A DNA stretch of 61,912 bases from an uncultured Opitutales bacterium (GTDB lineage Bacteria > Verrucomicrobiota > Verrucomicrobiia > Opitutales > CAYWEO01): the NCBI GenBank assembly GCA_964457855.1, contig CAYWEO010000006.1, positions 1-61,912 of the forward strand, given 5' to 3'. Below are positions 1,866 to 61,912 of this stretch, in pieces. Within the stretch, counting starts at the first letter, position 1; each line of letters begins with the position of its first letter. The notes under the pieces were generated by a model. That model was not told the origin of the DNA. It worked only from the letters and a program-made list of their open reading frames with translations, and did no database searches. The position numbers and the translations under genes are program-made.

Positions 1866-2185
1866 TTCGAAAACTTTTCTTATCCCGAGAAAAGAAATGG
1901 GACATCGAGCATGGCATCTCTTTCGAGCGGCGGGTGCGTTGCGCATCGGATCGCAAATTGCTTACGTATTTCTTATATACGCGCGCAATTTGCGCTCTCG
2001 CGCGCCTGCCCGTCATCTCGAAATAGGAGCCACGCTCGACGTCCCAACGTTTCCGAACCTTCAAAAGAAAAGCGATATCGGAAGGCATTTTTCCGGCACT
2101 ATGTGCCAGAAAAATGCCTTCCGAATAGGAGTTTTTTTGGAAAGGGTCCGGGAAAACCTATTTTTGTAAAAAATGGTTTTCCCGG
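1866..2185 (-). repeat. Tripartite hairpin mosaic, order H3-H2-H1 on the + strand, with H3 interrupted by L element copy L1
   Basis: H3 pieces lie at 1866-1898 and 2046-2057, H2 at 2078-2124 and H1 at 2148-2185. The conserved linkers CCTTCAAAAGAAAAGCGATA and ATAGGAGTTTTTTTGGAAAGGGT are present. Confidence 0.85.
1899..2045 (+). repeat. L element copy L1 (subfamily LC, about 147 nt long imperfect hairpin)
   Basis: The outer stem GGGACATCGAGCATGGCATCTCTTTCGAG pairs with CTCGAAATAGGAGCCACGCTCGACGTCCC. The basal loop is CGG opposite TCAT. The apex is GCAAATTGC-TTA-CGTAT..ATACG-CGC-GCAATTTGC. Confidence 0.85.
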
Positions 2186-3476: not shown

Positions 3477-3588
3477 CCGGAGAACCATTTTTTTGCAAAA
3501 AATTGGTTCTCCGGACCTCTCCAAAAAAAACTCTTATTCGAAAAGCATTTTTGCTGCAAGCAAAAATGCCTTTCGATATTTTTCCGAA
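3477..3588 (+). repeat. Tripartite hairpin mosaic, H1-H2 plus an H3 remnant
   Basis: H1 at 3477-3514 is CCGGAGAACCATTTTTTTGCAAAAAATTGGTTCTCCGG. H2 at 3538-3576 is TCGAAAAGCATTTTTGCTGCAAGCAAAAATGCCTTTCGA. A remnant TTTTTCCGAA follows. Confidence 0.85.
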
Positions 3589-3652: not shown

Positions 3653-3726
3653 GCGGGCGTAGTTTAATGGTAAAACGCCAGCCTTCCAAGCTGGACTCGT
3701 GGGTTCGATTCCCTCCGCCCGCACCA
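3653..3726 (+). tRNA. tRNA-Gly (anticodon UCC), CCA encoded
   Basis: The cloverleaf was folded by hand. The acceptor is GCGGGCG/CGCCCGC, the anticodon arm is CCAGC-CUUCCAA-GCUGG, the T loop is UUCGAUU, and the 3' end is ACCA. Confidence 0.9.
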
Positions 3727-8641: not shown

Positions 8642-9159
8642 TGAGAAAACGTCCAGGATTGAAGATGTTGGTAATTACGTTTGCGAATGTTTTACTCCTG
8701 CTGGGCATGAATTTGCTAAACAGTGTCTTGTGCATTCGTGGGAAACAACTCGAATGGTGCGGATTTTGCATCATTTTCCCGGCATTTTACCTCCCGATTG
8801 GTTGGGGTCTAACGAGTGTTGGATTATTAGGACTGCTGTTGGACGTTTTCAAAGACGATGCGTATGGAATTTCGGCAATCTTGTTGATGATCAATCTGTT
8901 AATGCTGTTTTCCGTTCGTTACAACTTTTATGACAAAAGCGATGCGCAGTGTCTTTTTTTAGGCTTCCTATTCAACGGCTTATGGATCATGCAGAGAGAC
9001 GTTGTTCAAATGCTCCTTGCGGGGAAATGGGGCCCTTGGGGGTATTTTTTGACCAACGCCGCTTTTTCGCAATGCGCCATGTTGTTGATCGGTTGGGCAT
9101 TTTTTAAGTTGCAGAGATATTATTTGCGCCTCATTTTAGGGACTTACTGGGATAGATAG
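8638..9159 (+). CDS. mreD: Rod shape-determining protein MreD (polytopic membrane protein)
   Basis: The ATG at 8638 overlaps the mreC stop (ATGA). The protein is small and hydrophobic, in the canonical mreBCD position. Confidence 0.65.
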   Translation: MMRKRPGLKMLVITFANVLLLLGMNLLNSVLCIRGKQLEWCGFCIIFPAFYLPIGWGLTSVGLLGLLLDVFKDDAYGISAILLMINLLMLFSVRYNFYDKSDAQCLFLGFLFNGLWIMQRDVVQMLLAGKWGPWGYFLTNAAFSQCAMLLIGWAFFKLQRYYLRLILGTYWDR

Positions 9160-9162
9160 GTA

Positions 9163-9332
9163 TTCGGAAACTTTTCTTTTCCAGAGAAAAGAAGAAGTTT
9201 CCGAACCTTCAAAAGAAAAGCATATCGGAAGGCATTTTTTAGGCACGTAGTGCCACAAAAATGCCTTCCGAACGAGAGTTTTTTCAGGGGAGGTCCGGAG
9301 GGGGTTGTTTTTGCAAAAAATACCCCCTCCGG
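9163..9332 (-). repeat. Complete tripartite hairpin mosaic (H3-H2-H1 on the + strand)
   Basis: H3 lies at 9163-9205, H2 at 9225-9271 and H1 at 9295-9332. It fills the mreD-mrdA spacer. Confidence 0.9.
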
Positions 9333-9369
9333 AAATTTAACAACTGCATAACCTACCCAGCCTACGACC

Positions 9370-11238: not shown

Positions 11239-11310
11239 AGTATTCCGGAGGGGGTATTTTTTGCAAAAACAACCCCCTCGCAGTCTCCCCTGAAAAAACT
11301 CTTATTTGAC

Positions 11311-11434
11311 ACCGTAGCGATTTCGAGCGCTAGGGTTCCGTTACAGGAAAATTCCAACCCCATCACGTACGTTAGTACGCTCAGGGGTTAAAATTTTCCC
11401 GTAGCCGTCCCTATCATCTCGAACTTACTACGGT
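11311..11434 (+). repeat. L element copy L2 (subfamily LA)
   Basis: Sequence by helix: ACCGTAGCGATTTCGAG-CGC-TAGGG-TTCCG-TTACAGG...CC-ATCA-CGTAC-GTTA-GTACG-CTCA-GG...CCGTAG-CCGT-CCCTA-TCAT-CTCGAACTTACTACGGT. Confidence 0.9.
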
Positions 11435-11523
11435 GCCACACTTGAAGCTTCGGGAAAACTCCCCTTTTTTTGCTCAGCATGAGCAAAAAATATCGCTTTT
11501 CTTTGGAGGGTGCGGGAACCGTT

Positions 11524-11667
11524 GGGACCTCGGGCGTGGCTTCTCTTTCGAGATGATAGGCAGGCGACCAAGGTCGCAAATTGCGCGCGTATTGTAATAC
11601 GTAAGCAATTTGAGATCCGATGGGCAACGCACCTAGCGCTCGAAATAGATGCTACGCACGTGGTTCC
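11524..11667 (-). repeat. L element copy L3 (subfamily LC, opposite orientation)
   Basis: Reads GAG-ATGA-TAGG...GCAAATTGC-GCG-CGTAT-TGTA-ATACG-TAA-GCAATTTG...CCTA-GCG-CTC, with a 29-nt outer stem related to that of L1. Confidence 0.85.
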
Positions 11668-14321: not shown

Positions 14322-15689
14322 ATGCAAGTGGAGGAATGCATGCAAAATCGTGAGGCTTTAGAGGCTTTTTTGTACAGTTTGAGGCATCTTGGGGGCAGAT
14401 GTGCGCTCGACGGCATGGAAAGGCTCATGCGAGCTTTAGGGGATCCGCAAAAGCGTTACTTGGCCATTCACGTTGCTGGGACGAATGGAAAGGGGTCTGT
14501 TTGCGCGTTTTTGGAGTCCATTTATCGCCATGCGAGTTATAAGGTGGGCATGTACACCTCTCCGCATCTTGTTGCTATAGAAGAACGGATTCAAGTTAAT
14601 CGCGAACTCATTCCATGGGAACGACTAGCGTTGTATTGCCAAAAAATACAAAAAACTGTGGACGAGAACGGTTTAGAGACCCCATCGTTTTTCGAGTGGA
14701 TGACGGCAATCGCGTTTTTATATTTTGCCGACGAAGCCGTTGATATAGCGATCATTGAGGTCGGGATTGGGGGGCGCTTGGATGCCACGAATATCCTGGA
14801 TCCGGCGATTTCAGTGATCACGTCCATCGGATTGGATCATGTGGAGCTTTTAGGAAACACGACACGGGAAATTGCTCAGGAAAAGGGTGGAATTATTAAA
14901 CCTTGGAAACCCGTCGTATTGGGCAACCTAGATGAGGAATCTGAGGGAGTCATTCGTAAAATGGCGCAATCAATCAAGAGCACTGTACACACTGTCTACG
15001 AACGCTTTGGAGATGATATCGACGATTATCCAGTCGCATCTTTAGAGGGTGACCACCAACGTGAAAATGCTGCTGTTGCGCGATTAACGTGCGAAGTTCT
15101 ACGCAATCAGGTGTTTATCGGTGACGATGCTATCGAAAATGGTCTGAAAAATACGCTTTGGGACGGTCGTTGGCAGAGAATTTCCCTAAAAAATTCCGTA
15201 AAACTCATTTTGGACGGAACACACAACGAGTTGGGAATGATCTACTTAGAGCAATTGCTTAAAAAATGGACAAAACACCATCACGAAAAGCTAGTCATTA
15301 TTGTAGGCGTCCTTGGCGAGTTTCGTGCAAAGAGTTTGATCCCAAAGTTAGCGAAATACGCCAATGAGTTCATCTTCGTGCAGCCTAACAGCGAAAAGGC
15401 CCTAGACGGCAGCGCCTTACGAACATTGATTCCTCCTTACTTTAAAGGCAACGTTCGCGACGGTAACGTCGCTGAATTGTTTTCATCAAAAGGCTTCTTA
15501 GCCAACCCACACGAACCCATAACCGTCCTCGTTACGGGGTCTCTCTATCTCGTTGGCGACGTATTGACGGCCTTGATTTTGAGCGGCGAGTTCGTTGCGC
15601 ATCGGATCTTGATGCCATCACGTTTCCGGGAAACCCCCTTTTTTATAAAAAAGGGGGTTTCCCGGACCCTTCCGCCAAAAAACTCTTAA
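14322..15689 (+). CDS. folC: Folylpolyglutamate synthase / dihydrofolate synthase
   Basis: Carries the Mur-ligase P-loop HVAGTNGKGS and the FolC end motif VTGSLYLVGDVL. About 36 extra C-terminal codons and the stop are encoded by repeats L4, H1 and the linker. Confidence 0.9.
   Translation: MQVEECMQNREALEAFLYSLRHLGGRCALDGMERLMRALGDPQKRYLAIHVAGTNGKGSVCAFLESIYRHASYKVGMYTSPHLVAIEERIQVNRELIPWERLALYCQKIQKTVDENGLETPSFFEWMTAIAFLYFADEAVDIAIIEVGIGGRLDATNILDPAISVITSIGLDHVELLGNTTREIAQEKGGIIKPWKPVVLGNLDEESEGVIRKMAQSIKSTVHTVYERFGDDIDDYPVASLEGDHQRENAAVARLTCEVLRNQVFIGDDAIENGLKNTLWDGRWQRISLKNSVKLILDGTHNELGMIYLEQLLKKWTKHHHEKLVIIVGVLGEFRAKSLIPKLAKYANEFIFVQPNSEKALDGSALRTLIPPYFKGNVRDGNVAELFSSKGFLANPHEPITVLVTGSLYLVGDVLTALILSGEFVAHRILMPSRFRETPFFIKKGVSRTLPPKNS
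15574..15621 (+). repeat. L element copy L4 (truncated; 5' half only)
   Basis: GATTTTGAG-CGG-CGAG-TTCGTT-GCGC-ATCGGATCTTGATGCC-ATCACG is then cut off by H1. Confidence 0.8.
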
Positions 15690-15798
15690 TTCGGAAGGCA
15701 TTTTTTGGCACTTAGTGCCAAAAAATGCCTTCCGATATGACTTTTCTTTGAAAGGTTCGGAAAACGTTTCTTTTCTTCTGAAAAGAAACGTTTTCCGA
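15625..15798 (+). repeat. Complete tripartite hairpin mosaic (H1-H2-H3), a near-canonical copy
   Basis: H1 lies at 15625-15664, H2 at 15690-15734 and H3 at 15755-15798. All three are near-perfect palindromes. Confidence 0.92.
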
Positions 15799-15817
15799 AT
15801 ATTCCTTCCTCCCCCAA

Positions 15818-16531: not shown

Positions 16532-16604
16532 GGCTTTTGTTGGTTAATACGTCCAAATCCCGGGCGTGGCGTTTATTTCGAGGTCAATGAGCAAGCACAA
16601 ACCG

Positions 16605-16740
16605 CAGACAGTGCCGATTTTGAGATAACGAGCAGGCGCGTGATAATTTTAACCCCCGAGCGTACTGTAGTACGTGACGGGGTTGAAATTTGAGCGCAAC
16701 GAACTCGCCGCTCAAAATCGGCACTGTCTGGAGGCAAGGT
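16605..16740 (-). repeat. L element copy L5 (LB-type base, LA-type apex) with a perfect 20-bp outer stem
   Basis: CAGACAGTGCCGATTTTGAG pairs with CTCAAAATCGGCACTGTCTG. The basal loop is ATAA opposite CCG. An LC-like arm fragment lies at 16561-16582. The right arm supplies the last 5 codons and the stop of exbD. Confidence 0.88.
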
Positions 16741-20812: not shown

Positions 20813-22528
20813 ATGAAATGGGTTTGTCGGCAAGTTTCCGAGACGGCGGTTAAGGCTTTGCAAGAGGCTCTCTCGATTTCGGAGACCCTCGCGTGTCTCT
20901 TGGTCGAAAATTCGATTACGGATCCCGAGGAAGCCGCTTCATTTTTGAATCCCCGTTTGGCGTATTTAAAGGATCCCCTCATCATTCATGGCCTTTCGGA
21001 AGTCGTTGATCGCCTATTTCAGGCGCGCGAAAAGAAGGAAAAAGTCGTTGTTCTTGGCGATTATGACGTCGACGGTTTGACGAGCGTTGCGCTAATGACG
21101 CTTATTTTGCGCCAGCTGGACATCGATGTTACGTATTTTGTTCCCAATCGTTTTGATGACGGTTATGGCTTATCGCGCTCGGTTGTAGAGAAAATCCTTA
21201 AAGAAATGGTTCCCAACGTCTTCATTGCGCTGGATTGCGGGACGAATTCTTTGAGCGAAATCGAATTATTGCAACGTCACAATGTCGATGTCATTGTCGT
21301 CGATCATCATAGCAACAGTTGCGGAGAATTACCGAAGTGCTTGATAGTCAATCCACACGCGTATCCCGACATCGACACCGCAGATGCACGTAGATTGTGT
21401 TCCGTCGGTCTCGTGTTCAAGTTGGCTCATGGGATTTTAAAGAAGCTGAAAACGATCAACCCCGAGTTGGCTTATCGCATAAAATTGAGGGAATATTTGG
21501 ATCTCGTTGCCATGGGTACCGTTGCGGATCTCGTTCCCTTGCAAGGAGATAACAGGATTTTGACAAAGTTCGGCCTCGAGCTGCTTCCCGAAAGTCATTT
21601 GCCCGGCGTAAAAGCTCTCATCAAGGTGGCCGGTCTGCAGGACGGTCAGAAATTGATACCGGGCGACATTTCCTTTAAATTGGCGCCAAGAATCAACGTC
21701 AGCGGTCGGATTTCTGATGCGCATCTTCCGCTAAAAATGCTTCTGAGTGAGCAGTTTAGCGAAGCGTTTGGATGGGCTAAGGAGTTGGATATTTTGAACA
21801 AGAAGCGGCAATTCATTGAGCAGCAAATCGTTGAAGAAGCTTTGGGCATGATTGACCTGAAAGACATTCCCGCGGGTGTCGTTTTGTACTCGGAAAAATG
21901 GCATTCCGGCGTCGTAGGCATTGTTGCCGGCAAATTAGCCAAGCAATTCAACCGCCCAGTAGTCATTCTTGGCAGAGAGGGACACGTCGTCAAAGGGTCT
22001 GCGCGAGGGACCGGATTGTTCAATTTGGTCGGTATTTTGACCAAATGCAAGGATTTGCTCGAAACGTGGGGTGGGCATCCGCAAGCCGTTGGAGTGTCGC
22101 TACTTCCGGAGAATTTGGAGGCTTTTCGAGCGCAGTTCAGTCTCGCAGTCACCAAGCAGGGCGGTACTTCTGAACATACAGACATTGAGCTGCCGATTTC
22201 CCGCACGCTTTCTGTCGATGACGTTACCATGCAACTTTTCGACGAAATGGAAGTCATGCAACCCTTCGGCATTGGCAATCCGCAACCCGTTTTCGTCATT
22301 GAACACGTCATTTTACAGAAACCCGTCGAACTCTTCGGCGAAAATCGCGAACACGTCCGCTTTAAACTCAGCCTACCTGCAAGCGAATCCACTGGCGTCG
22401 TTGGCTGGAGGTTGCGTGACCCCTCCCTCCCCATCCACCAACCCGTCAGCCTAGCCGTCAAACTCTCCTGGAATTACTGGAACAGCCGCCGCTACCCGCA
22501 GCTAGAACTACTCGACTGGGCGCCGTAG
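20813..22528 (+). CDS. recJ: Single-stranded-DNA-specific exonuclease RecJ
   Basis: Carries the DHH motifs GDYDVDGLTS, DCG and VVDHH plus a DHHA1 region. The last three codons and the stop lie in the outer stem of L6. Confidence 0.9.
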   Translation: MKWVCRQVSETAVKALQEALSISETLACLLVENSITDPEEAASFLNPRLAYLKDPLIIHGLSEVVDRLFQAREKKEKVVVLGDYDVDGLTSVALMTLILRQLDIDVTYFVPNRFDDGYGLSRSVVEKILKEMVPNVFIALDCGTNSLSEIELLQRHNVDVIVVDHHSNSCGELPKCLIVNPHAYPDIDTADARRLCSVGLVFKLAHGILKKLKTINPELAYRIKLREYLDLVAMGTVADLVPLQGDNRILTKFGLELLPESHLPGVKALIKVAGLQDGQKLIPGDISFKLAPRINVSGRISDAHLPLKMLLSEQFSEAFGWAKELDILNKKRQFIEQQIVEEALGMIDLKDIPAGVVLYSEKWHSGVVGIVAGKLAKQFNRPVVILGREGHVVKGSARGTGLFNLVGILTKCKDLLETWGGHPQAVGVSLLPENLEAFRAQFSLAVTKQGGTSEHTDIELPISRTLSVDDVTMQLFDEMEVMQPFGIGNPQPVFVIEHVILQKPVELFGENREHVRFKLSLPASESTGVVGWRLRDPSLPIHQPVSLAVKLSWNYWNSRRYPQLELLDWAP

Positions 22529-22648
22529 TGATTTCGAGCGCTAGGGTTCCGTTACAAAAAGAATTTAATCCCATCACGTACTACAGTACGCTCAGGAATT
22601 AAATTTTTTTGTAGCCGTCCCTATCATCTCGAACTGACTACGGCGCCC
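22518..22648 (+). repeat. L element copy L6 (subfamily LA)
   Basis: Sequence by helix: GGGCGCCGTAGTGATTTCGAG-CGC-TAGGG-TTCCG-TTACA...CC-ATCA-CGTAC-TACA-GTACG-CTCA-GG...TGTAG-CCGT-CCCTA-TCAT-CTCGAACTGACTACGGCGCCC. Confidence 0.92.
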
Positions 22649-22676
22649 AATCGAGTAAAGGTTACGAAACAACACC

Positions 22677-22783
22677 TAGGAAGGCATTTTGCGGGCACGA
22701 AGTGCCAAAAAATGCCTTCCGAATAAGAGTTTTTTTGGAAAGGGTCCGGGAAAACCAATTTTTGCAAAAAATGGTTTTCCCGG
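22677..22783 (-). repeat. Partial tripartite mosaic (H2-H1 on the + strand)
   Basis: H2 lies at 22677-22722, followed by the linker ATAAGAGTTTTTTTGGAAAGGGT and H1 at 22746-22783. Confidence 0.88.
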
Positions 22784-22811
22784 TTACAACTCTTATGTTA
22801 TACTACCGATC

Positions 22812-25253
22812 ATGTTAAGCAAAGCTTGGTGGACGGGGTGGGGTGGTGGGATGGTGTGTTTGGAGGCGGATTGTGAGGGGGCGTTGCCGTGTTTTTCGTT
22901 GGGGGATGGCGGTGAGGTGGTTGAGGTTAAGCGAGCGGATCCGTGGGAGTTTGGGGCGCATGGGGGGTGTTTTATTGAGGGTAAGGATGTTTATTTCACG
23001 CTGAGTCGTGGGAATTTCCCCGAGTTGGTGGGGATTTCGGGATCTGGGAATGAAGGGGATGCGGACGCGTTTTACGTGGCAGGAAATTTCAATGATTGGG
23101 GGGCAGCCGTTGGGAAAGGCGAATGGAGGTTGATGCCAAAGGAAGTCAATGGGCGGCAATATCTGGCGTTGCGTGTGCCGGTGGAAAATCTTTTAAAATT
23201 TGGCGATGGAGTGAATTTTAAATTCGTGTCTGAGAGGTATTGTTGGTTAAATGCTCCGGAGGGGGGGGCGAATGGCGTAGCAGATGGCTTGGGAGGTCGC
23301 AATTTTCATCTCAGTTTTCGAAGAAGCGGGCGTCATGCGTTCAAATTTGAGGTTCAGTCGCCCGTTGATATCTGGGCAGAGCAGCGGCTCGTTTTGCATA
23401 GGAATGATGGTATAACTGAGTCTTTAGTCATTGATTATGAGCGATTTTTGCTCTCATTGCGGTCGTCAAAGCCATTGGGAGCAATCGTTGAAGGAGATCA
23501 AACAACATTCCGGCTGTTTGCGCCGAGAGCGGAGCGGGTGGGCGTTGCAGTTTTTAAGGTAGCGGAAACGGAAAGCGACCGAATTGAACTTCCATTGCAG
23601 CGTTCCGAAGACGGTGTTTGGGAGGGAAAGTATCCCAAAAATCTTGACGGATTCCGCTATTATTACACTGTCACAAGTGCTTGCAAGGGAGTGGATTCGC
23701 ATTTTGATGATCGGGTGAAAATTCTGGATCCCTACGCCCTAGCAACCGTGAGCCGTGAGGGGCCTGGAATCATTTTGGATTCGAAAAAGTTCCAAAATTT
23801 TGAGCAAAACGATCCCTTCGTTTCGCCAGCCTTACAGGATCTGGTTATAATGGAGTGCCACGTGCGCGATTTGTTGAATAAAGTGCCGGATTTGGCCGAT
23901 TCTGAGCGCCTGGGGTTTGTGGGACTGACGCGCTGGTTACGGTCATCAAGTACTTGCTATCTTTCGAACCTGGGTATCAATGCCGTTGAGCTGCAGCCAC
24001 TTCAGGATTTTGACAGCGTCAGCAGGGACACATACCATTGGGGTTACATGCCGATCAATTACTTTTGTCCGGCAAGGGATTACGCGACGCAGCCCGAAAA
24101 AGTGTCGCAAATCGTTGAATTGCAAGACTGTGTGAAGGCCTTCCATGAGCGAGGAATCGCCGTGATCGTGGATGTCGTTTACAACCACGTTGGAGATCCC
24201 AAACCACTGTTATGCATCGATAAGCGGTACTATTTTCATTGCATGCCAGAGGGGAAATTGACGAATTGGAGTGGCTGCGGCAACGACTTACGGACGCAGT
24301 CCCCCATGGTGCGTCGGTTGATTTTGGATAGCCTCCTCTATTGGGTAAAAACATTCCATGTGGACGGATTTCGTTTCGATTTGGCAGAGCTTTTAGGGAA
24401 AGAGCTTTTGTGCGAGATCGAGCGCGAGTTGCGAAAAGTAAGGCCTGGGATCATTTTGATCGCCGAACCCTGGAGTTTTCGTGCACACATGGGGATTTCG
24501 TTAAAAGATACTGAATTTTCCGTTTGGAACGACGGCTATCGCGATTTTGTCGCTCAATATGTCTGCGAAAAAGGGAATTCTGCCGGAATCCAATACTTTT
24601 TAGGTGGTTCCATCAAGCACTTAACGCGTTTCCCGACCCAAACGATCAACTACACCGAATCGCACGATGACCGCTGCTGGATCGACAAAATGACCGAGCG
24701 CTCTCACAATCGTGGAGACGCCTGGACAAAGCTGGATCGCCAGCGTACACACCTCATGTTCTCGATTTTATTCGCGTCGCTCGGCATTCCCATGATCGCC
24801 GCTGGTCAAGATTTCCTCAAATCCAAACACGGTGTCTCCAATACCTACCAAAACGGTGCACTCAACGCGCTCGACTACCTGCAAATTTTCCAATGCCCCT
24901 CCACTCACGACTACGTAAAAAATTGGATCGCGTTCCGTAAGTCGCTAATAGGTGGTCTTTTGCGCCTAGACAAACGCCCTTCAGATGGCTACCTAACGTT
25001 CTTCGAAGTCCCCGGAAAATCCTCCATCGGCGCCCTCTTTAACGCCGATCACTCTCTCGGCCCCCAACAAATCCTTTACGCCGTCAACCCTCACCACCAG
25101 GCCGTCTCTCTCCACCTCCCCGGCATCAATCCCGCAAACTTCACCCAAATCGCTGACCACGAACACTTCTCTCCAACAACCCCCTTCCCCTGGACGGCAG
25201 GTGCGTTGCACCTGCCGCCCGTCTCCTGCGGCCTGTTGACAAGGGTTTTATAA
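22812..25253 (+). CDS. GH13 alpha-1,6-glucosidase (pullulanase or glycogen-debranching type)
   Basis: Carries the GH13 regions DVVYNHV, GFRFDLA, AEPW and YTESHDD. The start was trimmed to the ATG at 22812 because upstream codons only read through H2/H1. Confidence 0.85.
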   Translation: MLSKAWWTGWGGGMVCLEADCEGALPCFSLGDGGEVVEVKRADPWEFGAHGGCFIEGKDVYFTLSRGNFPELVGISGSGNEGDADAFYVAGNFNDWGAAVGKGEWRLMPKEVNGRQYLALRVPVENLLKFGDGVNFKFVSERYCWLNAPEGGANGVADGLGGRNFHLSFRRSGRHAFKFEVQSPVDIWAEQRLVLHRNDGITESLVIDYERFLLSLRSSKPLGAIVEGDQTTFRLFAPRAERVGVAVFKVAETESDRIELPLQRSEDGVWEGKYPKNLDGFRYYYTVTSACKGVDSHFDDRVKILDPYALATVSREGPGIILDSKKFQNFEQNDPFVSPALQDLVIMECHVRDLLNKVPDLADSERLGFVGLTRWLRSSSTCYLSNLGINAVELQPLQDFDSVSRDTYHWGYMPINYFCPARDYATQPEKVSQIVELQDCVKAFHERGIAVIVDVVYNHVGDPKPLLCIDKRYYFHCMPEGKLTNWSGCGNDLRTQSPMVRRLILDSLLYWVKTFHVDGFRFDLAELLGKELLCEIERELRKVRPGIILIAEPWSFRAHMGISLKDTEFSVWNDGYRDFVAQYVCEKGNSAGIQYFLGGSIKHLTRFPTQTINYTESHDDRCWIDKMTERSHNRGDAWTKLDRQRTHLMFSILFASLGIPMIAAGQDFLKSKHGVSNTYQNGALNALDYLQIFQCPSTHDYVKNWIAFRKSLIGGLLRLDKRPSDGYLTFFEVPGKSSIGALFNADHSLGPQQILYAVNPHHQAVSLHLPGINPANFTQIADHEHFSPTTPFPWTAGALHLPPVSCGLLTRVL

Positions 25254-25256
25254 ATA

Positions 25257-25452
25257 TTCGGAAACTTTTCTTTTCAGAAGAAAAGAAGAAGTTTCCGAAC
25301 CTTCAAAAGAAAAGTCATATCGGAAGGCATTTTTTGGCACTCCGTGCCATAAAAATGCCTTCCGAACGAGAGTTTTTAAGGGGGAGGCCCGGAGGGGGTG
25401 CTTTTTGCAAAAAACACCCCCTCAGGGAAAAAGCACTTTGGCCCCCCTCCGG
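25257..25452 (-). repeat. Complete tripartite mosaic (H3-H2-H1) plus an extra H1 arm fragment
   Basis: H3 lies at 25257-25299, H2 at 25320-25365 and H1 at 25389-25426. An additional CCCCCCTCCGG arm lies at 25442-25452. Confidence 0.9.
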
Positions 25453-37189: not shown

Positions 37190-37759
37190 ATGAATCAAAT
37201 CAACTGGATGGAATTTTTGGAGAACGTAAAACAGCTGGCGCTTCAGCATCCTCGTGTGTCTGGAGTGTTATTGGGCGTTTTCGTCATCGTTTTAGTCGTT
37301 TGGTGGCGCTCTCGCTACATTAAAATCACAAAAGACTCGATGGGGTCCCTCAAGATTTCCAAAAAAGTGATCCGCGGGATGATTATCGAAACGTACAAGG
37401 GGATTGCTGGATTTAGGCGAACCCCCGTCGTTAAGGTGCGATTTTCGTGCGGGAAAATCCATTTCCGCCTTCGTGTGCAAATCGTCGATACTTGCAAAGT
37501 GAGCGAGTCCATTGAGGAGCTTCAACGGAAAATTTATGACCGCATGCAACACAGCTTTGGCGCCAATCGGGTCGGGAGTATCCATGTTCGTATCACGCGT
37601 TGCTTTTCATCCAATGCGAAGGTCGCTCAAATTGTCCAAGCGGTTACTCGAACGATTTCTAGAGAACCTTGCCGCAATTGTGATGGAAAACTGACGAGCG
37701 ATCGTAGTGGTTCTATCGAGGAAGTAGAGGCGTTTAAGGAATGGAAGTCCAAATGGTAG
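37190..37759 (+). CDS. Membrane-anchored hypothetical protein, possibly an AmaP-like Asp23 anchor
   Basis: Has an N-terminal TM segment (VLLGVFVIVLVVWW) and lies directly after the Asp23-family gene. The assignment rests on context. Confidence 0.4.
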   Translation: MNQINWMEFLENVKQLALQHPRVSGVLLGVFVIVLVVWWRSRYIKITKDSMGSLKISKKVIRGMIIETYKGIAGFRRTPVVKVRFSCGKIHFRLRVQIVDTCKVSESIEELQRKIYDRMQHSFGANRVGSIHVRITRCFSSNAKVAQIVQAVTRTISREPCRNCDGKLTSDRSGSIEEVEAFKEWKSKW

Positions 37760-37787: not shown

Positions 37788-37936
37788 AAACCGTGCGAGG
37801 ACGTAGCGATTTCGAGCGCTAAGGTTCCGTTACAGAAGAAACTGAACCCCATCACGCATTTTAATGCGCTCAGGGGATTCAGTTTCTTCCGTAGCCGTCC
37901 TTATCATCTCGAACTTGCTACGTCCTCGCACGGTTT
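37788..37936 (+). repeat. L element copy L7 (LA variant with compensatory stem changes)
   Basis: The outer stem AAACCGTGCGAGGACGTAGCGATTTCGAG pairs with CTCGAACTTGCTACGTCCTCGCACGGTTT. P2 is TAAGG/CCTTA and the apical stem is CGCAT/ATGCG. The loops CGC, TCAT, ATCA and CTCA are unchanged. Confidence 0.9.
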
Positions 37937-37937
37937 T

Positions 37938-38073
37938 CCACCCTAAAAACTCTTAAATGCGGAAGGCATTTTTGATTGGCACTATAGTGCCAATCAAAAA
38001 TGCCTTCCGATACCGCTTTTCTTTGGAGGGTTCGGGAACCTTTTCTGTTCTCGCGAACAGAAAGGTTCCCGAA
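37938..38073 (+). repeat. Partial tripartite mosaic (linker-H2-linker-H3)
   Basis: H2 at 37959-38010 has a 3-bp-longer inner stem, GATTGGCAC/GTGCCAATC. H3 lies at 38031-38073. Confidence 0.88.
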
Positions 38074-38089
38074 ATTCCCTCTCCCAAAA

Positions 38090-38522
38090 ATACTTTGAAG
38101 CAGTTATAAGCCGGATTCTGTATATCGTTTCTAACGCGATACTACGTCCATTTATCTAGCAAAAGTTGCCCTTTGCTCCCTTCCCTTTGGAGGGGTGCGG
38201 CGTACCCGAAATCGATGAGCGGGCCGCTCGATTCCCTATTTCGCCTTGCACCGGATTGGGTTTTCAATGCCTTTGCGATTACTCACAAAGCGGGGAGCTC
38301 TTACCTCTCCTTTTCACCTTTTCTTAACGTGTTGATTATCACTAACTAACGCGCAAAGTAGTTTATTTTCTGTTGCACTTTCCGTAACCTTGGGATATTG
38401 CCCAAAGTTCCCTCATTTTTCATGAGGAATCCTGCCCTGTGGTGTCCGGACTTTCCTCTATGTTTTAGATGTTCCTTGCGAAAAATCACCCAACACAGCG
38501 AACGCACACTGCTTCAAAGCAC
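38090..38522 (-). ncRNA. rnpB: RNase P RNA, bacterial type A
   Basis: The reverse strand carries GAGGAAAGUCCGGACACC, ACGGAAAGUGCAACAGAAAAUA, GGUAAGAGCUC, AGAUAAAUGG and ACAGAAUCCGGCUUAUAA. P1 is formed by CUUUGAAGCAG (38519-38509) pairing with CUGCUUCAAAG (38103-38093). The region is ORF-free. Confidence 0.9.
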
Positions 38523-39921: not shown

Positions 39922-39941
39922 GGTCCTACTTTAGTAAAAAT

Positions 39942-40057
39942 TGCGGAAACCATTTCTTTTCAGAAGAAAAGAAACGTGTTTCCGCGCCTTCCAAAGAAAA
40001 GTCGTATCAAAAGGCATCTTCATTTGGCCTTACAGGCCAAATGAAGATGCCTTTTGA
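39942..40057 (-). repeat. Partial tripartite mosaic (H3-linker-H2 on the + strand)
   Basis: H3 lies at 39942-39986. H2 at 40007-40057 has a divergent but self-complementary stem, AAAAGGCATCTTCATTTGGCC/GGCCAAATGAAGATGCCTTTT. Confidence 0.85.
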
Positions 40058-40140
40058 ATTAAAAGTTGTTAATGGGGAACGGCCCTGGAAATCACCTTTC
40101 GCCTTTAAACCGGCCTTGCTGATAAAAATGGCGTTGAGTG

Positions 40141-40258
40141 CGTCGATTTCGAGATGATAGGGACGGCTACAAAAAAATTTAATTCCTGAGCGTACTGTAG
40201 TACGTGATGGGATTAAATTTCTTTGTAACGGAACCCTAGCGCTCGAAATCGCTACGCA
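40141..40258 (-). repeat. L element copy L8 (subfamily LA, opposite orientation)
   Basis: Sequence by helix: GAG-ATGA-TAGGG-ACGG-CTACA...CC-TGAG-CGTAC-TGTA-GTACG-TGAT-GG...GTAAC-GGAA-CCCTA-GCG-CTC. The apex is nearly identical to the reverse complement of L6. Confidence 0.9.
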
Positions 40259-40501
40259 TCCTACGCCGATTTTACAAATGTTTCAAAAGTCTCTTACTAT
40301 GCCTATTCGCCTTCCTTTTTTTATTCAGCTTGTGCTTGTTCATCTTGAGCCTGCGCGTCTTTTTTAGGTTTCCCATAAATGTTATAAATATGTTATTTGT
40401 TTATATTTAACACTCTGATTTTCCGTTGGAAAGTAAAGCTTTTTTTAACAAGAAATAAAGTTCTTGAAGAATGCGTCAGAAGTTGCAGTGTTATTGGTGG
40501 T

Positions 40502-41605: not shown

Positions 41606-41773
41606 CCGGAGGGGGTATTTTTTGCAAAAACAACCCCCTCCGGACCTCCCCCGAAAAAACTCTCATTCGGAAGGCATTTTTTTGCCATGCTGGCGAAAAA
41701 ATGCCTTCCGATACCGCTTTTCTTTGGAGGGTTCGGGAACCTTTTGTTTTCATGGAAAACAAAGGTTCCCGAA
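41606..41773 (+). repeat. Complete tripartite mosaic (H1-H2-H3)
   Basis: H1 lies at 41606-41643, H2 at 41667-41711 and H3 at 41732-41773. The H2 loop contains the in-frame ATG at 41687. Confidence 0.9.
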
Positions 41774-43459
41774 TTATTTCTTCTCCTCCTGCCCTACCTT
41801 CTTCTAATTGCGTGGGTGGTTGTTGGTCTTACGGGGCATCATCCGTGGAAGCCGGACGAGGCATATACATTGGGGCTCGTGAATCACATCGCGAAGACGG
41901 GGGACTGGGTGGTGCCAACGCTTGCAGGGGAACCGTTTATGGAAAAACCTCCGTTGTTTTTTATGACTGCAGCGTTTTTCGCAAAAACGTTCTCGAAATG
42001 GTGTTTTTTTCATGATGCTGCGCGCTTGGCTGCTGGATTTTTTTCAAGTATTCTACTCATTGCGGTCGGATTGACAGCGAAGAAAATTTTTGGGAAGGGG
42101 AGGGCGCTTTTTGCCGCTCTGCTCTTGGCGGGGTGTCCGGCGGCCCTCGTCCACTGTCATCAGCTAATTACCGATGTTGCTCTGATTGCGGGAATTGCGA
42201 TCGCTCTCTACGGAGGGTGTTGTATCGCCGAGAAAGGGATGCGCGGGCCTTTTTTCTTGGGTTCTGGAGTCGGTATCGCCTTCTTATCCAAGGGGTTGCT
42301 GGCTCCAGGACTCCTGGGAATTACTTGCATAGCGCTCTTTCTGTTGCGTCCATACCGCTCAAAGCAATACGCAAAAAACCTGCTGTTTGCCGTTGTTTTT
42401 GCGCTCCCATGGCTGCTGATTTGGCCTTACGCGTTATATCAACGATCTCCGCAGCTCTTCCATGAATGGTTTTGGGTGCAGAACATTGGGCGTTACTTCG
42501 GTTTGATGACGGCGGTGTCTGCGATTAAAGACCCGTTTTTCTACAATTTGATCGGCTTGTGGCCCTTCTTCCCGGCGGTGGTCTGCGCGGCGGTGGTTTT
42601 TTGTAAACGGCATAAAAATATCCTGCAAAACGTTCCCATGCAATGGGTTCTAGGCTATTTTGTCGTCTGCCTAACGGTGTTGAGTCTGTCGAGACATGGA
42701 CGGCAATTGTATGCACTTCCCCTCGGGCTACCGCTTGCGATTTTGGGGAGTGAAGCGGCGTTTTGTTGTTTCGAACGTTTGAAAAAGTGGAGCGGTTTAT
42801 TTAAGTGTTTGATGATCAGCATCTTCGGAATCGTTGCGTTCGGAACCTGGCTGACTTGGATCGGCTGTCTCTTGGAGTGGCCTATCGCGTTTTTATTGGG
42901 ATTCCAGGAAACATTTGCGCCCGGTTATGTGTTCGAATTCGAGGGGTTGTTTGTGGGAACGGCGTTGTTTGTGACGATTTTATGGCTCATCATTAACCTA
43001 TTTTCCCGTCCCAACATTATCACAGCCTGGACGAGTGGCGTAACGTTGACGTGGTCCCTCGTCATGACACTTTGGCTGCCCTTCATCGACTACGGGAAGG
43101 GGTACAGCAGAGTGATGCCGGAAATGGCGACACATTTCCCGAAAAACACCCTCGTTATGAGCTACCGTTTGGGCGAACCGCAAAGGGCGCTTTTTGATTA
43201 TTATTGTCCGGGAAAATTGGCGCATCGCATCGAAAATCCGGCATTTTGGCAGCAATTACGGCCCGAATGGGGAAGTTTTTCGGGAAATGACCCCTTAAAA
43301 CGCTTTTTTCAGCTAAAAATGCCTCCGCACACGTGTTTGCTGATTCAAGGAGTTTGGCGGCATCCACCGGATTTCATGCCGGCTTTGTGGCGACTCATTT
43401 GGGAAGGAGCGAGACCGGCGGATGATGGCGAGCACTTTTGGCTGTTTGAGAAGATGTAG
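41687..43459 (+). CDS. GT39/GT83-type (ArnT/PMT-like) membrane glycosyltransferase
   Basis: Carries the DE motif and loop HHPWKPDEAYTLGLVNHIAKTGDWVVPTLAGEPFMEKPPLFF, followed by many TM segments. The start is uncertain: the in-frame ATGs at 41585 and 41687 both lie in or before the repeat, and the first start codon after the repeat (GTG at 41816) would truncate TM1. Confidence 0.75.
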   Translation: MLAKKCLPIPLFFGGFGNLLFSWKTKVPELFLLLLPYLLLIAWVVVGLTGHHPWKPDEAYTLGLVNHIAKTGDWVVPTLAGEPFMEKPPLFFMTAAFFAKTFSKWCFFHDAARLAAGFFSSILLIAVGLTAKKIFGKGRALFAALLLAGCPAALVHCHQLITDVALIAGIAIALYGGCCIAEKGMRGPFFLGSGVGIAFLSKGLLAPGLLGITCIALFLLRPYRSKQYAKNLLFAVVFALPWLLIWPYALYQRSPQLFHEWFWVQNIGRYFGLMTAVSAIKDPFFYNLIGLWPFFPAVVCAAVVFCKRHKNILQNVPMQWVLGYFVVCLTVLSLSRHGRQLYALPLGLPLAILGSEAAFCCFERLKKWSGLFKCLMISIFGIVAFGTWLTWIGCLLEWPIAFLLGFQETFAPGYVFEFEGLFVGTALFVTILWLIINLFSRPNIITAWTSGVTLTWSLVMTLWLPFIDYGKGYSRVMPEMATHFPKNTLVMSYRLGEPQRALFDYYCPGKLAHRIENPAFWQQLRPEWGSFSGNDPLKRFFQLKMPPHTCLLIQGVWRHPPDFMPALWRLIWEGARPADDGEHFWLFEKM

Positions 43460-51819: not shown

Positions 51820-51894
51820 TGGTACCCCCACGGAGAATCGAACTCCGATTTTCGGAATGAGAATCCGATGTCCTAACCGTTAGACGATGAGGGC
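51820..51894 (-). tRNA. tRNA-Glu (anticodon CUC), CCA encoded
   Basis: Hand-folded structure: GCCCUCA-UC-GUCU-AACGGUUA-GGAC-A-UCGGA-UUCUCAU-UCCGA-AAAU-CGGAG-UUCGAUU-CUCCG-UGGGGGU-A-CCA. Position 1-72 would be a G-U pair. Confidence 0.85.
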
Positions 51895-51996
51895 TCACCG
51901 TTTAATGAAGGTAAATCATCCATGATTTGTGAGCCCTTTGTCAAGGATTTATGATGGTTGTCATAAATTTTCCCCGCTGTGTTGGGTAGTTTTTTT

Positions 51997-52168
51997 CCGG
52001 GAAACCCCCTTTTTTATAAAAAAGGGGGTTTCCCGGACCCTTCCCCCTAAAAATTTTTATTCGGAAGGCATTTTTATGGCACGTAGTGCCAAAAAATGCC
52101 TTCCGATATGCTTTTCTTTTGAAGGTTCGGAAACTTCTTCTTTTCTCTGGAAAAGAAAAGTTTCCGAA
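51997..52168 (+). repeat. Complete tripartite mosaic (H1-H2-H3)
   Basis: H1 lies at 51997-52036, H2 at 52061-52106 and H3 at 52126-52168. Confidence 0.92.
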
Positions 52169-52186
52169 AAAATTCCCCCTCTCCTC

Positions 52187-54894: not shown

Positions 54895-54942
54895 AAAACA
54901 AACGGTAATCGTAGGAGACGTTGGTAGTGGAGCAATTAAAAA

Positions 54943-55170
54943 TTCGGAAAACTTTCTTTTCAGAAGAAAAGAAACGTTTTCCGAACCTTTCAAAGAAAAG
55001 TCATATCGAAAGGCATTTTTGTTCGGACTTATGGTCCGAACAAAAATGCCTTTCGAATTGAGAGTTTTTAAGGGGGAGGTCCGGAGGGGGTGCTTTTTGC
55101 AAAAAACACCCCCTCCGGCAGGTAAGCACCCCGGGAAACCCACTTTTTTATAAAAAAGTGGGTTTCCCGG
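54943..55170 (-). repeat. Tripartite mosaic with duplicated H1 (H3-H2-H1b-H1a on the + strand)
   Basis: H3 lies at 54943-54985. H2 at 55006-55056 has the inner stem GTTCGGAC/GTCCGAAC. One H1 lies at 55081-55118 and a second H1 at 55131-55170. Confidence 0.9.
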
Positions 55171-56963: not shown

Positions 56964-56968
56964 TTTTT

Positions 56969-57142
56969 CCGGGAAACCCCCTTTTTTATAAAAAAGCGGG
57001 TTTCCCGGACCCTTCTCACTAAAAATTTTCGTTCGGAAGGCATTTTTTCAGCACGTAGTGCTAAAAAAATGCCTTCCGATACCGCTTTTCTTTTGAAGGT
57101 TCGGAAACTTTTTCTTTTCTCGTGAAAAGAAAAGTTTCCGAA
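56969..57142 (+). repeat. Complete tripartite mosaic (H1-H2-H3)
   Basis: H1 lies at 56969-57008, H2 at 57032-57079 and H3 at 57100-57142. Confidence 0.92.
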
Positions 57143-57162
57143 ATTATTTTATTTTATACCCC

Positions 57163-58043: not shown

Positions 58044-58070
58044 ATAATAGGCAAGTTAGGGTGGTGGTGA

Positions 58071-58238
58071 CCTGGAAAACCATTTTTTGCAAAAATTAGT
58101 TTTCCAGGGCCCTTTCCAAAAAAACTCTCGTTTCGGAAGGCATTTTTTGGCACGTAGTGCCAGAAAAATGCCTTCCGATATGCTTTTCTTTGAAGGGTCC
58201 GGGAAACTTTCTTTTCGAAGAAAAGAAAGTTTCCCGGA
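58071..58238 (+). repeat. Complete tripartite mosaic (H1-H2-H3) inside the atpD-atpC spacer
   Basis: H1 at 58071-58108 has CCTGG...CCAGG ends. H2 lies at 58132-58178 and H3 at 58198-58238. Confidence 0.9.
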
Positions 58239-58255
58239 AAAACATCCTCCTTATT

Positions 58256-59814
<1,559 letters not shown>

Positions 59815-59840
59815 TCGTAAGATTTGTTAAAAATAAGGTA

Positions 59841-59946
59841 TTGGAAGGCATTTTTGGGCCTGCAAGGCATAAAAATGCCTTCCGAATAAGAGTTTTTTTG
59901 GAAAGGGTCCGGGAAAACCAATTTTTGCAAAAAATGGTTTTTCCGG
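59841..59946 (-). repeat. Partial tripartite mosaic (H2-H1 on the + strand) in the atpG-atpD spacer
   Basis: H2 at 59841-59885 has a degenerate inner stem. It is followed by the linker ATAAGAGTTTTTTTGGAAAGGGT and H1 at 59909-59946. Confidence 0.85.
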
Positions 59947-59974
59947 TATCTCATCCACAAAATCATCTCTAAAA

Positions 59975-60873: not shown

Positions 60874-60993
60874 AAGCGCGTCGATTTTGAGCGGCGAGTT
60901 CGTTGCGCTCGGCCTCAATGCCATCACGTACGTTAGTACGCTCAGGCATCTCGTTCTCGCGCGCCTGCTCGTCATCTCAAAATCGAAGCGCTT
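60874..60993 (+). repeat. L element copy L10 (subfamily LB), 9 nt upstream of the atpG start
   Basis: It is almost identical to L9 in the core. The outer stem AAGCGCGTCGATTTTGAG pairs with CTCAAAATCGAAGCGCTT. Confidence 0.9.
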
Positions 60994-61065: not shown

Positions 61066-61219
61066 GAAAAGACGGCATCTATTTTGAGATGACGAGCAGG
61101 CGCGCGAGGTCGATTGGAGACCATCCAATCCCCCAATTCCTGAGCGTACTGACGTACGTGATGGAATTGAGATCCGATGCGCAACGAACTCGCCGCTCAA
61201 AATAGATGCCGTCTTTTTC
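61066..61219 (-). repeat. L element copy L11 (subfamily LB, opposite orientation, longer apical arm)
   Basis: The 23-bp outer stem GAAAAGACGGCATCTATTTTGAG pairs with CTCAAAATAGATGCCGTCTTTT(T)C. The core reads GAG-ATGA-CGAG-CAGG-CGCGC...CC-TGAG-CGTAC-TGAC-GTACG-TGAT-GG. The right end overlaps the atpA stop codon. Confidence 0.9.
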
Positions 61220-61912
61220 ATTGGACGGTTGTTAGGGTTGTCTTCCATGCCGTTAGTGTCGCGCGGAGGGTTTCTTCAAATTCTTTAGTGATTTCTTTTT
61301 TCGTATAGAGTTCGAGGAGAACGGGTTGGGCGGATTCTTGGAGGTAGGTTTCCATGTGCCTTGCGGTTTCGAGGGTTTTGGGAATGGCGATGTCGTCGAA
61401 AAACTTATTTTGCAGGGCCCAAATGAGAATGATTTGGATTTCGACGGCTTTTGGACTAGAAATGGGTTGTTTGAAGAGTTCAACGATGCGTCCTCCGCGT
61501 TCTAGCTGACTCTTTGTCGCGGAATCGAGGTCTGCGCCGAATTGGGCGAAAGCGGCGAGCTCGTAGTACTGGGCCATTTCGAGTTTTAAGCGACCGGCCA
61601 CCTGCTTGAGAGCCTTTATCTGGGCGGCAGAACCGACGCGAGAAACGGAGGGTCCAATCGCGATTGCGGGGCGAATTCCCTTATTAAAAAGGTCGGTTTC
61701 GAGGAAAATCTGGCCGTCCGTGATGGAAATGACGTTTGTGGGGATGTAAGCGGAAATGTCGCCCGCCTGAGTCTCGATGATGGGTAGGGCGGTGAGAGAG
61801 CCGTTTCCGCAAGCGGCGCTCAAACGTGCGGAACGTTCCAACAAGCGTGAGTGTAGGTAAAAAATGTCGCCCGGATAGGCCTCGCGTCCGGAGGGTCGCT
61901 TCAAAACGAGGG
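61218..61912 (-). CDS. atpA: F1 ATP synthase alpha subunit (C-terminal part; the gene continues beyond the window)
   Basis: Carries [49 protein letters not shown] and [10 protein letters not shown]. Confidence 0.95.

Follow-up and report, generated by a model that had tools for sequence, protein, structure and literature searches.

ERIC (IRU) elements are bacterial intergenic repeats of ~127 bp that fold into a single long imperfect hairpin, adjoin or overlap stop codons, and lack a transposase of their own. They are widely used as a typing target, although how they spread is unknown, and are seen as an enterobacterial and vibrio feature; indeed, they have been described as confined to the Enterobacteriaceae and Vibrionaceae (PMC10969869). 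Two further classes of described repeats resemble them in part: generic MITEs (miniature inverted-repeat transposable elements), which have inverted-repeat ends and are too short to encode a protein, and REPINs, which are hairpin-forming, non-autonomous repeats of ~100 nt made up of REP doublets and mobilized by RAYT. Here, we analyze L, a repeat family in a 61,912-nt stretch of DNA from an uncultured Opitutales bacterium (GCA_964457855.1, contig CAYWEO010000006.1, positions 1-61,912), hereafter called the window. L appears from its sequence to be a dense variant of the ERIC kind, residing in Verrucomicrobiota, a phylum for which we found no ERIC reported. The outer stems of its copies are self-complementary far beyond chance. 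Some are part of the element and vary between copies mainly by mirrored substitutions, whereas others continue as an unbroken helix into host sequence, including the last codons of recJ, and it is this host-running helix that is the unusual part of L. As a tentative explanation, we propose that the outer stems were shaped by sporadic template switching within the hairpin during replication.

The L family and its kinship with ERIC

The set of L copies comprises ten full copies and one truncated copy, and was obtained by a search for TTTYGAG...CTCRAAA together with inspection of every match to the core motif GATTTYGAG, which occurs 13 times in the window versus 2.8 expected. The resulting density of 11 copies in 62 kb, or ~1 per 5.6 kb, compares with roughly 30 ERIC copies per E. 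coli genome (PMC10969869). The cores measure 98-121 nt (120-154 nt with the terminal helix), and the minimum-free-energy fold is one long imperfect hairpin in all ten full copies. The element is made directional by its conserved internal loops, which are asymmetric, so that an A end (TTTYGAGCGGCGAGTTCGTTGCGC) and a B end (GCGCGCCTGCTCGTCATCTCRAAA) can be told apart, and the center, read on the B-to-A strand, is the hairpin CCTGAGCGTAC-N4-GTACGTGATGG. The copies fall into two main subfamilies (GCGGCGAG... and GCGCTAGGGTTCCGTTAC...) and a longer variant found at 1921 and 11546; copies outside the numbered series L5-L7 and L9-L11 are named here by the start of their core. Across the ten copies, 14 of the 29 predicted core pairs show double changes, and the B-to-A strand is the more stable one in 9/10 copies, an asymmetry of G.U vs C.A. 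Two other readings of the fold were dropped: a kink-turn or box C/D-like motif at the central UGAG...UGAU loop, which has no 3-nt bulge and was judged by sequence alone, and an integron attC site, for which the R'/R'' consensus is not present.

A covariance model built from the ten window copies only (R1) gives a full-length match of 28.3 bits to an E. coli ERIC copy, namely the single ybhJ-ybhI copy used for comparison (locus L099, 270-376), while the best background match in 1.45 Mb of unrelated bacterial loci reaches 14.6 bits. The two families share the inner end TTYGAG...CTYRAA, the AGGCG and ACG(C/A)AAC blocks, and the central hairpin GAGC(G/T)TAC-N4-GTA(C/A)GTGA with an identical flanking loop, and L is like ERIC in forming a single long imperfect hairpin of similar length, in its position next to or overlapping stop codons in intergenic DNA, and in having no transposase of its own. 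No open reading frame (ORF) of the window, which covers 62 kb of the genome only, has a transposase domain, RAYT and Y1 included. Because of the match of R1 to ERIC and the lack of such a domain in the window, we class L as an ERIC-like (IRU-type), MITE-like foldback repeat. It nevertheless differs from ERIC in several respects. Its host is verrucomicrobial rather than a member of the Enterobacteriaceae or Vibrionaceae, its terminal helix is variable, with some copies extending into host sequence, and it has no consistent TA duplication, whereas ERIC is reported to duplicate TA on insertion (PMC3184786). TA is found at both core ends only in L11, the other copies having CGA/TCG or TC/TA there. 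The element in fact ends further out, and a direct repeat of the kind left by target-site duplication is visible at none of the copies. L also has the inverted-repeat ends and the non-coding length of a generic MITE and, like REPINs, is a non-autonomous hairpin of ~100 nt; unlike REPINs, it is not a REP doublet, carries a GTAG-like motif in subfamily 2 only, and has its sequence kin in ERIC, and whereas REPINs depend on RAYT, the window has neither a RAYT nor a Y1 transposase gene.

Relatives of L were found well outside the window. Model R1 matches metagenome elements with 30-60 bits, and two elements near recJ in Verrucomicrobia bacterium GWF2_51_19 with 25 and 20.7 bits. The latter genome has three ERIC-like elements within 21 kb around recJ (locus L101, 2964-3067, 7777-7887, and 9017-9128), the third being a weaker match of 10.9 bits. 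Among metagenome contigs, the central 23-nt pattern returned 18 loci, and in at least 12 of them a stop codon is followed directly by a full-length L relative. Eight contigs place the element after a ~1000-residue protein ending in ...DCEACQ*, which resembles, judged from its C-terminal residues only, the large subunit of ribonucleotide reductase (nrdA-like). Likewise judged by C-terminal residues, the proteins that precede the element elsewhere are presumably ribosomal protein S14 (...GVKKASW*) and possibly glutamate dehydrogenase (...ADAMLAQGLY*). The stems of the elements after the ...DCEACQ* gene differ among species and are still paired, which suggests that this may be a long-lived, possibly functional element of the 3' untranslated region. 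The contigs in question (L082, L083, L085, L086, L087, L089, L092, and L095, ending ...PDCEACQ*) belong to several different high-GC species, with the element 10-25 nt past the stop codon, and one of them carries the Pseudomonas P15 small RNA. At its gathering thresholds, Rfam has no family at any L copy or metagenome relative; in E-value mode, it returned only matches to plant and animal microRNA precursors, which are spurious and typical of any long hairpin.

Close relatives of the window itself are scarce. The best hit in an AtpG scan of GTDB with one genome per species is a Puniceicoccales metagenome-assembled genome, and no relative exceeds 58% AtpG identity; the closest RecJ among 5.8 billion proteins is only 48% identical; and none of the loci returned by the metagenome scan with the central hairpin pattern is a contig of this organism. 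Motif searches and the L covariance model found no L copy at 80 AtpG loci. Judged by these comparisons, the lineage is probably an isolated, deep-branching, Opitutae-like verrucomicrobial one, with metagenome-assembled genomes of Puniceicoccales and Opitutae as its nearest relatives. The gene order of the window is partially like that of loci L101 and L102 (secDF-recJ; AMP-binding, Rce1-like, and thyA genes).

Outer stems of the element and their continuation into host DNA

An earlier note on this DNA had described six L copies whose two flanks pair with each other, and all six arm pairs are indeed found: 61066-61081 with 61203-61219 in L11, 16605-16617 with 16718-16730 in L5, 22509-22531 with 22635-22657 in L6, 37788-37809 with 37915-37936 in L7, 59693-59704 with 59803-59814 in L9 (11/12 paired), and 60874-60884 with 60983-60993 in L10 (a single mismatch). 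Pairing flanks are also present in the four full copies that it did not list, which have their cores at 1921-2023, 11321-11424, 11546-11645, and 40147-40248. When the left flank was locally aligned with the reverse complement of the right one, nine of the ten copies scored 9-20, as compared to 5.1 ± 1.3 for 5000 random placements, of which 0.02-1.3% reached the scores of those nine. The only low scorer is L9, whose right boundary had been set too far out; with the boundary corrected, its arms pair as given above. In an alignment of the six subfamily-1 ends, 88.6% of the cells are paired versus 33-42% with a slid partner, and 13 of the 22 terminal pairs have been altered on both sides, a proportion reached in none of 500 shuffles. 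The note had further held that the outer sequence is specific to each copy, which is an overstatement, since the copies at 1921 and 11546 share an outer arm of ~25 nt with ~80% identity, and L5, L9, L10, L11, and the truncated copy at 15564 align to a common GACnGCnTCGA. Its view that the outer stems are flanks and not part of the element holds for L6 and L7 and fails for L5, L9, L10, and L11, whose stems are homologous between copies.

The stems of L5, L9, L10, and L11 are the terminal inverted repeat of the element itself, because they are homologous to one another when aligned from the junction, as is that of the truncated copy, and because they match the AAGACCG...CGGTCTT that flanks all three GWF2_51_19 elements, that is, the two model matches and the weaker third. 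The likeness to AAGACCG is seen in AAGACGG of L11, TTGACCG of L9, TTGACGG of the 15564 copy, and CAGACAG of L5. The element-borne helix is ~11 nt long in subfamily 1 (GACnGCnTCGA), 8 nt in subfamily 2 (CGTAGYGA), and ~25 nt in the pair at 1921 and 11546, and the differences between copies are mainly mirrored substitutions. For example, L9 and L10, which are 93% identical, differ in their outer stems at two pairs in which both partners have changed, and L10 has one mismatch that is uncompensated. The GWF2_51_19 elements have mirrored changes just inside their AAGACCG...CGGTCTT ends (TGCAAAATAG vs TGTAAAATGG).

Three of the copies with such stems lie in the atp operon. L11 (61066..61219, minus strand; 100.4 bits) has its core at 61082-61202 with the A end (TTTTGAGCGGCGAG...) at the right, and its terminal helix pairs GAAAAGACGGCATCTA with TAGATGCCGTCTTTTTC, with TTTTGAG...CTCAAAA between them; it adjoins the atpA stop codon (TGA, minus strand, 61218-61220). 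An additional internal hairpin of ~25 nt (about 61108-61133; ...GTCGATTGGAGACCATCCAATCCCCC...) occurs in L11 only and is an alignment gap in the other copies. L10 (60874..60993, plus strand; core 60885-60982; 107 bits) has the helix AAGCGCGTCGA / TCGAAGCGCTT, and its end is 8 nt upstream of the start codon of atpG (60865, minus strand). L9 (59693..59814, plus strand; core 59705-59802; 109.9 bits) has the helix TGACCGCTTCGA / TTGAAGCGGTCA and is located 9 nt upstream of the start codon of atpD (59683, minus strand). Next to exbD, the arms of L5 (16605..16730, minus strand; core 16618-16717; 103 bits), CAGACAGTGCCGA and TCGGCACTGTCTG, form a perfect helix of 20 bp if its TTTTGAG end is counted. 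Immediately to the left of L5, at 16551-16604, there is a degenerate fragment that resembles the B end of L and has the arm of the long variant (CCCGGGCGTGGCGTTTA TTTCGAG GTCAATGAGCAAGCAC), and that may be a remnant of an older L copy. The truncated copy (15564..15623, plus strand) retains its A-side arm, TTGACGGCCTTGA, and the core up to its midpoint, and is cut at 15623/15625 by a palindrome of another repeat family, which looks like the outcome of a nested insertion or a replacement. A Mur-ligase/FolC-like ORF (14322-15689) runs through both of these repeats, and its last ~40 codons are apparently repeat-derived.

The longer variant is represented by the 1921 copy (1899..2045, plus strand; core 1921-2023; 94.6 bits) with the 22-nt arms GGGACATCGAGCATGGCATCTC / TAGGAGCCACGCTCGACGTCCC, and by the 11546 copy (11524..11667, minus strand; core 11546-11645; 93.7 bits) with the 22-nt arms GGGACCTCGGGCGTGGCTTCTC / TAGATGCTACGCACGTGGTTCC, which are homologous to those of the former. 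The 11321 copy (11306..11438, plus strand; core 11321-11424; 101.4 bits), which belongs to subfamily 2 and lies downstream of a PBP2-like gene, has the arms TTGACACCGTAGCGA / TTACTACGGTGCCA.

The helix runs 5-15 bp further, into DNA that is specific to the locus, in L6 and L7 and, weakly, in the copy at 40147. L6 (22509..22657, plus strand; core 22532-22634) has the element-borne end CGTAGTGA at 22524-22531, and beyond it TACTCGACTGGGCGC (22509-22523) pairs with GCGCCCAATCGAGTA (22643-22657) at 14 of 15 positions. The 40147 copy (40130..40267, minus strand; core 40147-40248; 107.2 bits), which lies in the divergent xseA-dus intergenic region, has a core 97% identical to that of L6 and the flanks GGCGTTGAGTGCGTCGA / TCGCTACGCATCCTACGCC, which pair imperfectly (9/14 beyond CGTAG, with a 2-nt deletion). 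The homology between these two copies stops at CGTAG on one side and at CTCGAA on the other; beyond CGTAG, their flanks are unrelated between the two loci, and the flank pair of each copy is self-complementary. L7 (37788..37936, plus strand; core 37810-37914; 96.4 bits) begins 28 nt past the stop codon of the ORF at 37190-37759; next to its element-borne end (AGGA)CGTAGCGA, AAACCGTGCG(AGGA) pairs with (TCCT)CGCACGGTTT over 10-14 bp with no mismatches, followed by TTTT. The origin of one of these arms can be read from the protein, as the left extension of L6, TACTCGACTGGGCGC, encodes the residues L-L-D-W-A of RecJ (...LLDWAP; ELLDW), and RecJ homologues end in ...ELIDW(R).... Since it encodes the conserved C-terminus of RecJ, this arm must be ancestral coding sequence and cannot have been brought in by L. 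The sole mismatch between the L6 arms is a synonymous difference in the Asp codon, GAC vs GAT. In these copies, pairing passes unbroken from the element into host sequence, and no loop bases are left over at the junction. The extension is sporadic, being found in about 3/10 window copies, in no subfamily-1 copy, and in none of the three GWF2_51_19 copies; L5, L9, L10, the 1921 and 11546 copies, and the three GWF2_51_19 copies have either no inverted flank or one of 2 bp at most.

All 11 L copies sit at gene boundaries, in intergenic DNA or reaching no further than a gene's last codons, and the element itself can provide the end of the reading frame. The overlaps with recJ and exbD that the earlier note had pointed out are both real: the recJ stop codon (TAG, 22526-22528) lies within the left arm of L6 and is supplied by the element end CGTAG, whereas the exbD stop codon (TGA, minus strand, 16712-16714) is supplied by the TTTTGAG end of L5 (CTCAAAA on the plus strand), with the stop codon and the last five codons spanning the right arm and the core end. 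The A end (TTTYGAGCGGCGAG...) points toward the nearest coding sequence in 11/11 copies, so that the seven copies just after a stop codon are read A-to-B in the transcript and the four just before a start codon B-to-A (two-sided binomial probability of about 0.001). The A-to-B direction after a stop codon recurs at the metagenome loci (L082-L098) and in the ERIC copy between ybhI and ybhJ of E. coli. This rule points to selection, or a bias of insertion, connected with transcription. An orientation-dependent placement of Yersinia ERICs near stop codons was reportedly found by De Gregorio et al. (2005). Orientation effects have likewise been reported for ERIC in Yersinia (PMC3184786, PMC10969869).

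Possible origins of the matched arms

Our preferred explanation, which we rate at somewhat less than an even chance, is that sporadic template switching within the L hairpin during replication shaped the outer stems. We favor it because one mechanism would cover the mirrored changes seen in young copies, the almost complete lack of uncompensated intermediates, and the unbroken run of the helix into host DNA. The nascent strand would occasionally switch template inside the hairpin, as in quasipalindrome template switching. If the switch took place within the helix, a new mutation would be copied from arm to arm, giving a mirrored change in a single step; if it was primed on the terminal helix and ran past its end, one flank would be overwritten by the reverse complement of the other and the helix would become longer. 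The host extension does start immediately beyond the 5-bp terminal helix. With coding sequence on one side, as at recJ, only copying from the coding onto the non-coding flank would survive, and the internal loops of the core would persist if variants that lost them stopped propagating. Mirrored changes are also seen in unrelated palindrome families of the window (53097 and 55131), which has perfect stems of 24 bp at 40007 and 23 bp at 55006 as well. Template switching is reported to be able to create perfect stems, mend stem pairing, and expand inverted repeats (PMC8794818; PMC13100816, PMC3820800). The pattern in L resembles what the same papers and one further report describe, namely reverse-complement copies, repair of mismatches in one event, and lengthened inverted repeats (PMC8794818; PMC13100816, PMC3820800, PMC7202029), although these descriptions concern single loci and RNA genes rather than the ends of a dispersed repeat family.

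Several observations weigh against template switching. The asymmetric loops of the core have been homogenized in none of the copies, and this includes the GAT vs AAG/CAG mismatch just inside the terminal helix of subfamily 2, so the copying must be local or opposed by selection. The 40147 copy combines a young-looking core with a decayed flank helix (9/14), a better fit to an imperfect palindrome that was there beforehand, and both L7 and L11 resemble terminators with an A-tract, a stem, and a T-tract. In E. coli, the XseA and RecJ exonucleases limit mutation of the template-switch type; the window encodes both, and no repair defect is evident. Finally, the sample amounts to 11 L copies, and the history of each locus is one that we infer.

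A second explanation is that L enters palindromes or terminator hairpins that were already in place, at their dyad; the locus-specific arms of L6, of L7, of the copy at 40147, and possibly of L11 would then be older than the insertion. L7 (AAACCGTGCG...CGCACGGTTTT) and L11 (GAAAAAGACGG...CCGTCTTTTTC) could pass for bidirectional terminators just past stop codons, 7/11 copies lie directly after a gene end, and the window has a few hairpins with A/T-tracts that are free of L (at 3545, 5002, and 11466). The flank helix of the 40147 copy, imperfect beside a young core, could be a natural imperfect target, and one hypothetical join of the empty site would give RecJ the plausible tail DWAPRPIE*. Group IIC introns insert next to terminators and would leave flanks that are both copy-specific and self-complementary. 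Flanks of this kind would also be left by IS1397/ISKpn1 and IS621, which insert into REP, and insertion sequences aimed at REP hairpins are a known phenomenon (PMC3184786). Hairpin-targeting elements are, however, autonomous and have defined target families, whereas the locus-specific arms of L are sporadic: most window copies and all three GWF2_51_19 copies have no locus-specific helix, so targeting is not obligate, and an untargeted hit on the center of a dyad is very unlikely. Continuous pairing across the junction would moreover demand perfect palindromes without a loop, and such palindromes in the window are all members of repeat families, while the unique hairpins with a perfect stem of at least 9 bp (those at 3545, 5002, and 11466) all have non-palindromic loops. 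A terminator consisting of a GC-rich stem and a T-run was found at none of the gene ends in the window, the four matches to the pattern all being inside genes; of the L loci, L7 and L11 have the look of such a structure after a gene, and L5, L6, L9, L10, and the 40147 copy do not. The target of L6 would have been a near-perfect palindrome of 31 bp within conserved recJ codons, and the recJ ends of the two nearest relatives, L101 and L102, have no hairpin over the LIDW codons, which is weak evidence as both are distant. On balance, we regard pre-existing palindromes as a less likely, though plausible, source of the arms.

Selection on its own, which would retain point mutations only when compensated because the hairpin is needed as an RNA or as a transposition substrate, accounts for the variation of the element-borne helix. 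A role of the hairpin in mRNA stability or processing has been proposed for Yersinia ERIC, and such a function would be in line with the fixed orientation of L toward coding sequence, shared by the metagenome and E. coli copies, with the better folding of one strand in 9/10 copies, and with the elements after the ...DCEACQ* gene that differ between species and stay paired. Compensatory changes are also reported to be common in REPINs (PMC3116915). What selection alone does not explain is the extension into the host, since it cannot make 14-15 bp of perfect complementarity to unique host sequence or to constrained codons, as in L6 and L7. Mirrored double changes between copies that are 2-7% apart would further require very strong selection on each intergenic copy, and uncompensated intermediates are almost absent. 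We therefore consider selection improbable as the sole cause. The earlier note had offered both selected, co-evolving helices and templated repair between the arms, and for the mirrored variation in L5, L9, L10, and L11 either proposal fits. Its third proposal, that the insertion reaction itself duplicates the target flank in inverted form (a foldback or inverted target-site duplication), would agree with the near-perfect inverted flanks of L6 and L7 and with the lack of an evident direct target-site duplication at any copy. It is disfavored by the absence of the extension from most window copies and from all three GWF2_51_19 copies, the inverted flank being missing or at most 2 bp in the eight copies named above, and by a length that varies from 0 to 15 bp. 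The youngest pair differs strongly as well (14/15 in L6 vs 9/14 in the 40147 copy), and ERIC is reported to duplicate TA (PMC3184786), all of which makes this mode of insertion a very improbable origin of the arms.

Surroundings of L and wider meaning

Most of the other intergenic regions of the window are occupied by a second, larger family of composite repeats, found at 2044-2188, 9157-9335, 15623-15801, 22687-22786, 25251-25430, 37941-38076, 39938-40078, 41606-41778, 51994-52171, 54937-55121, 56966-57145, 58065-58238, and 59837-59949. These repeats are made up of at most three hairpins set on conserved linkers (...AAAAGAAAAG...CGGAAGGCATTTTT[apex hairpin]AAAAATGCCTTCCG...TCCGGGAAACC...), with perfect stems of 19-25 bp and copies that differ by mirrored substitutions. 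Much of the intergenic DNA of the window, which amounts to 8.8 kb, is taken up by L and the composite repeats together. The window also contains a class A RNase P RNA gene (38091-38517, minus strand; 218.9 bits) and two tRNA genes (3653-3723, plus strand, and 51823-51894, minus strand). L7 and one composite repeat occupy the interval that separates the ORF at 37190-37759 from the RNase P RNA gene at its 3' end.

For the annotation of this genome, L matters in that it supplies stop codons and alters the C-termini of recJ, exbD, and the FolC-like ORF. A dense family in a verrucomicrobial lineage, together with single copies in Pseudomonas-like contigs, suggests a wider and older ERIC superfamily, and the mirrored arms and the helix that runs into recJ make a case for asking whether selection or copying keeps the hairpins of bacterial repeats perfect. 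Beyond L itself, template switching leads to a broader proposition, which we put forward as speculative and rather doubtful: ERIC-type hairpins would seed the growth of palindromes, with copying at their base that repeatedly places the reverse complement of neighboring host DNA, the ends of essential genes among it, on the opposite flank and keeps the arms matched without selection. If this proposition is true, the L family would be a natural, genome-wide reporter of template-switch mutation and a source of new structures at the 3' ends of genes.

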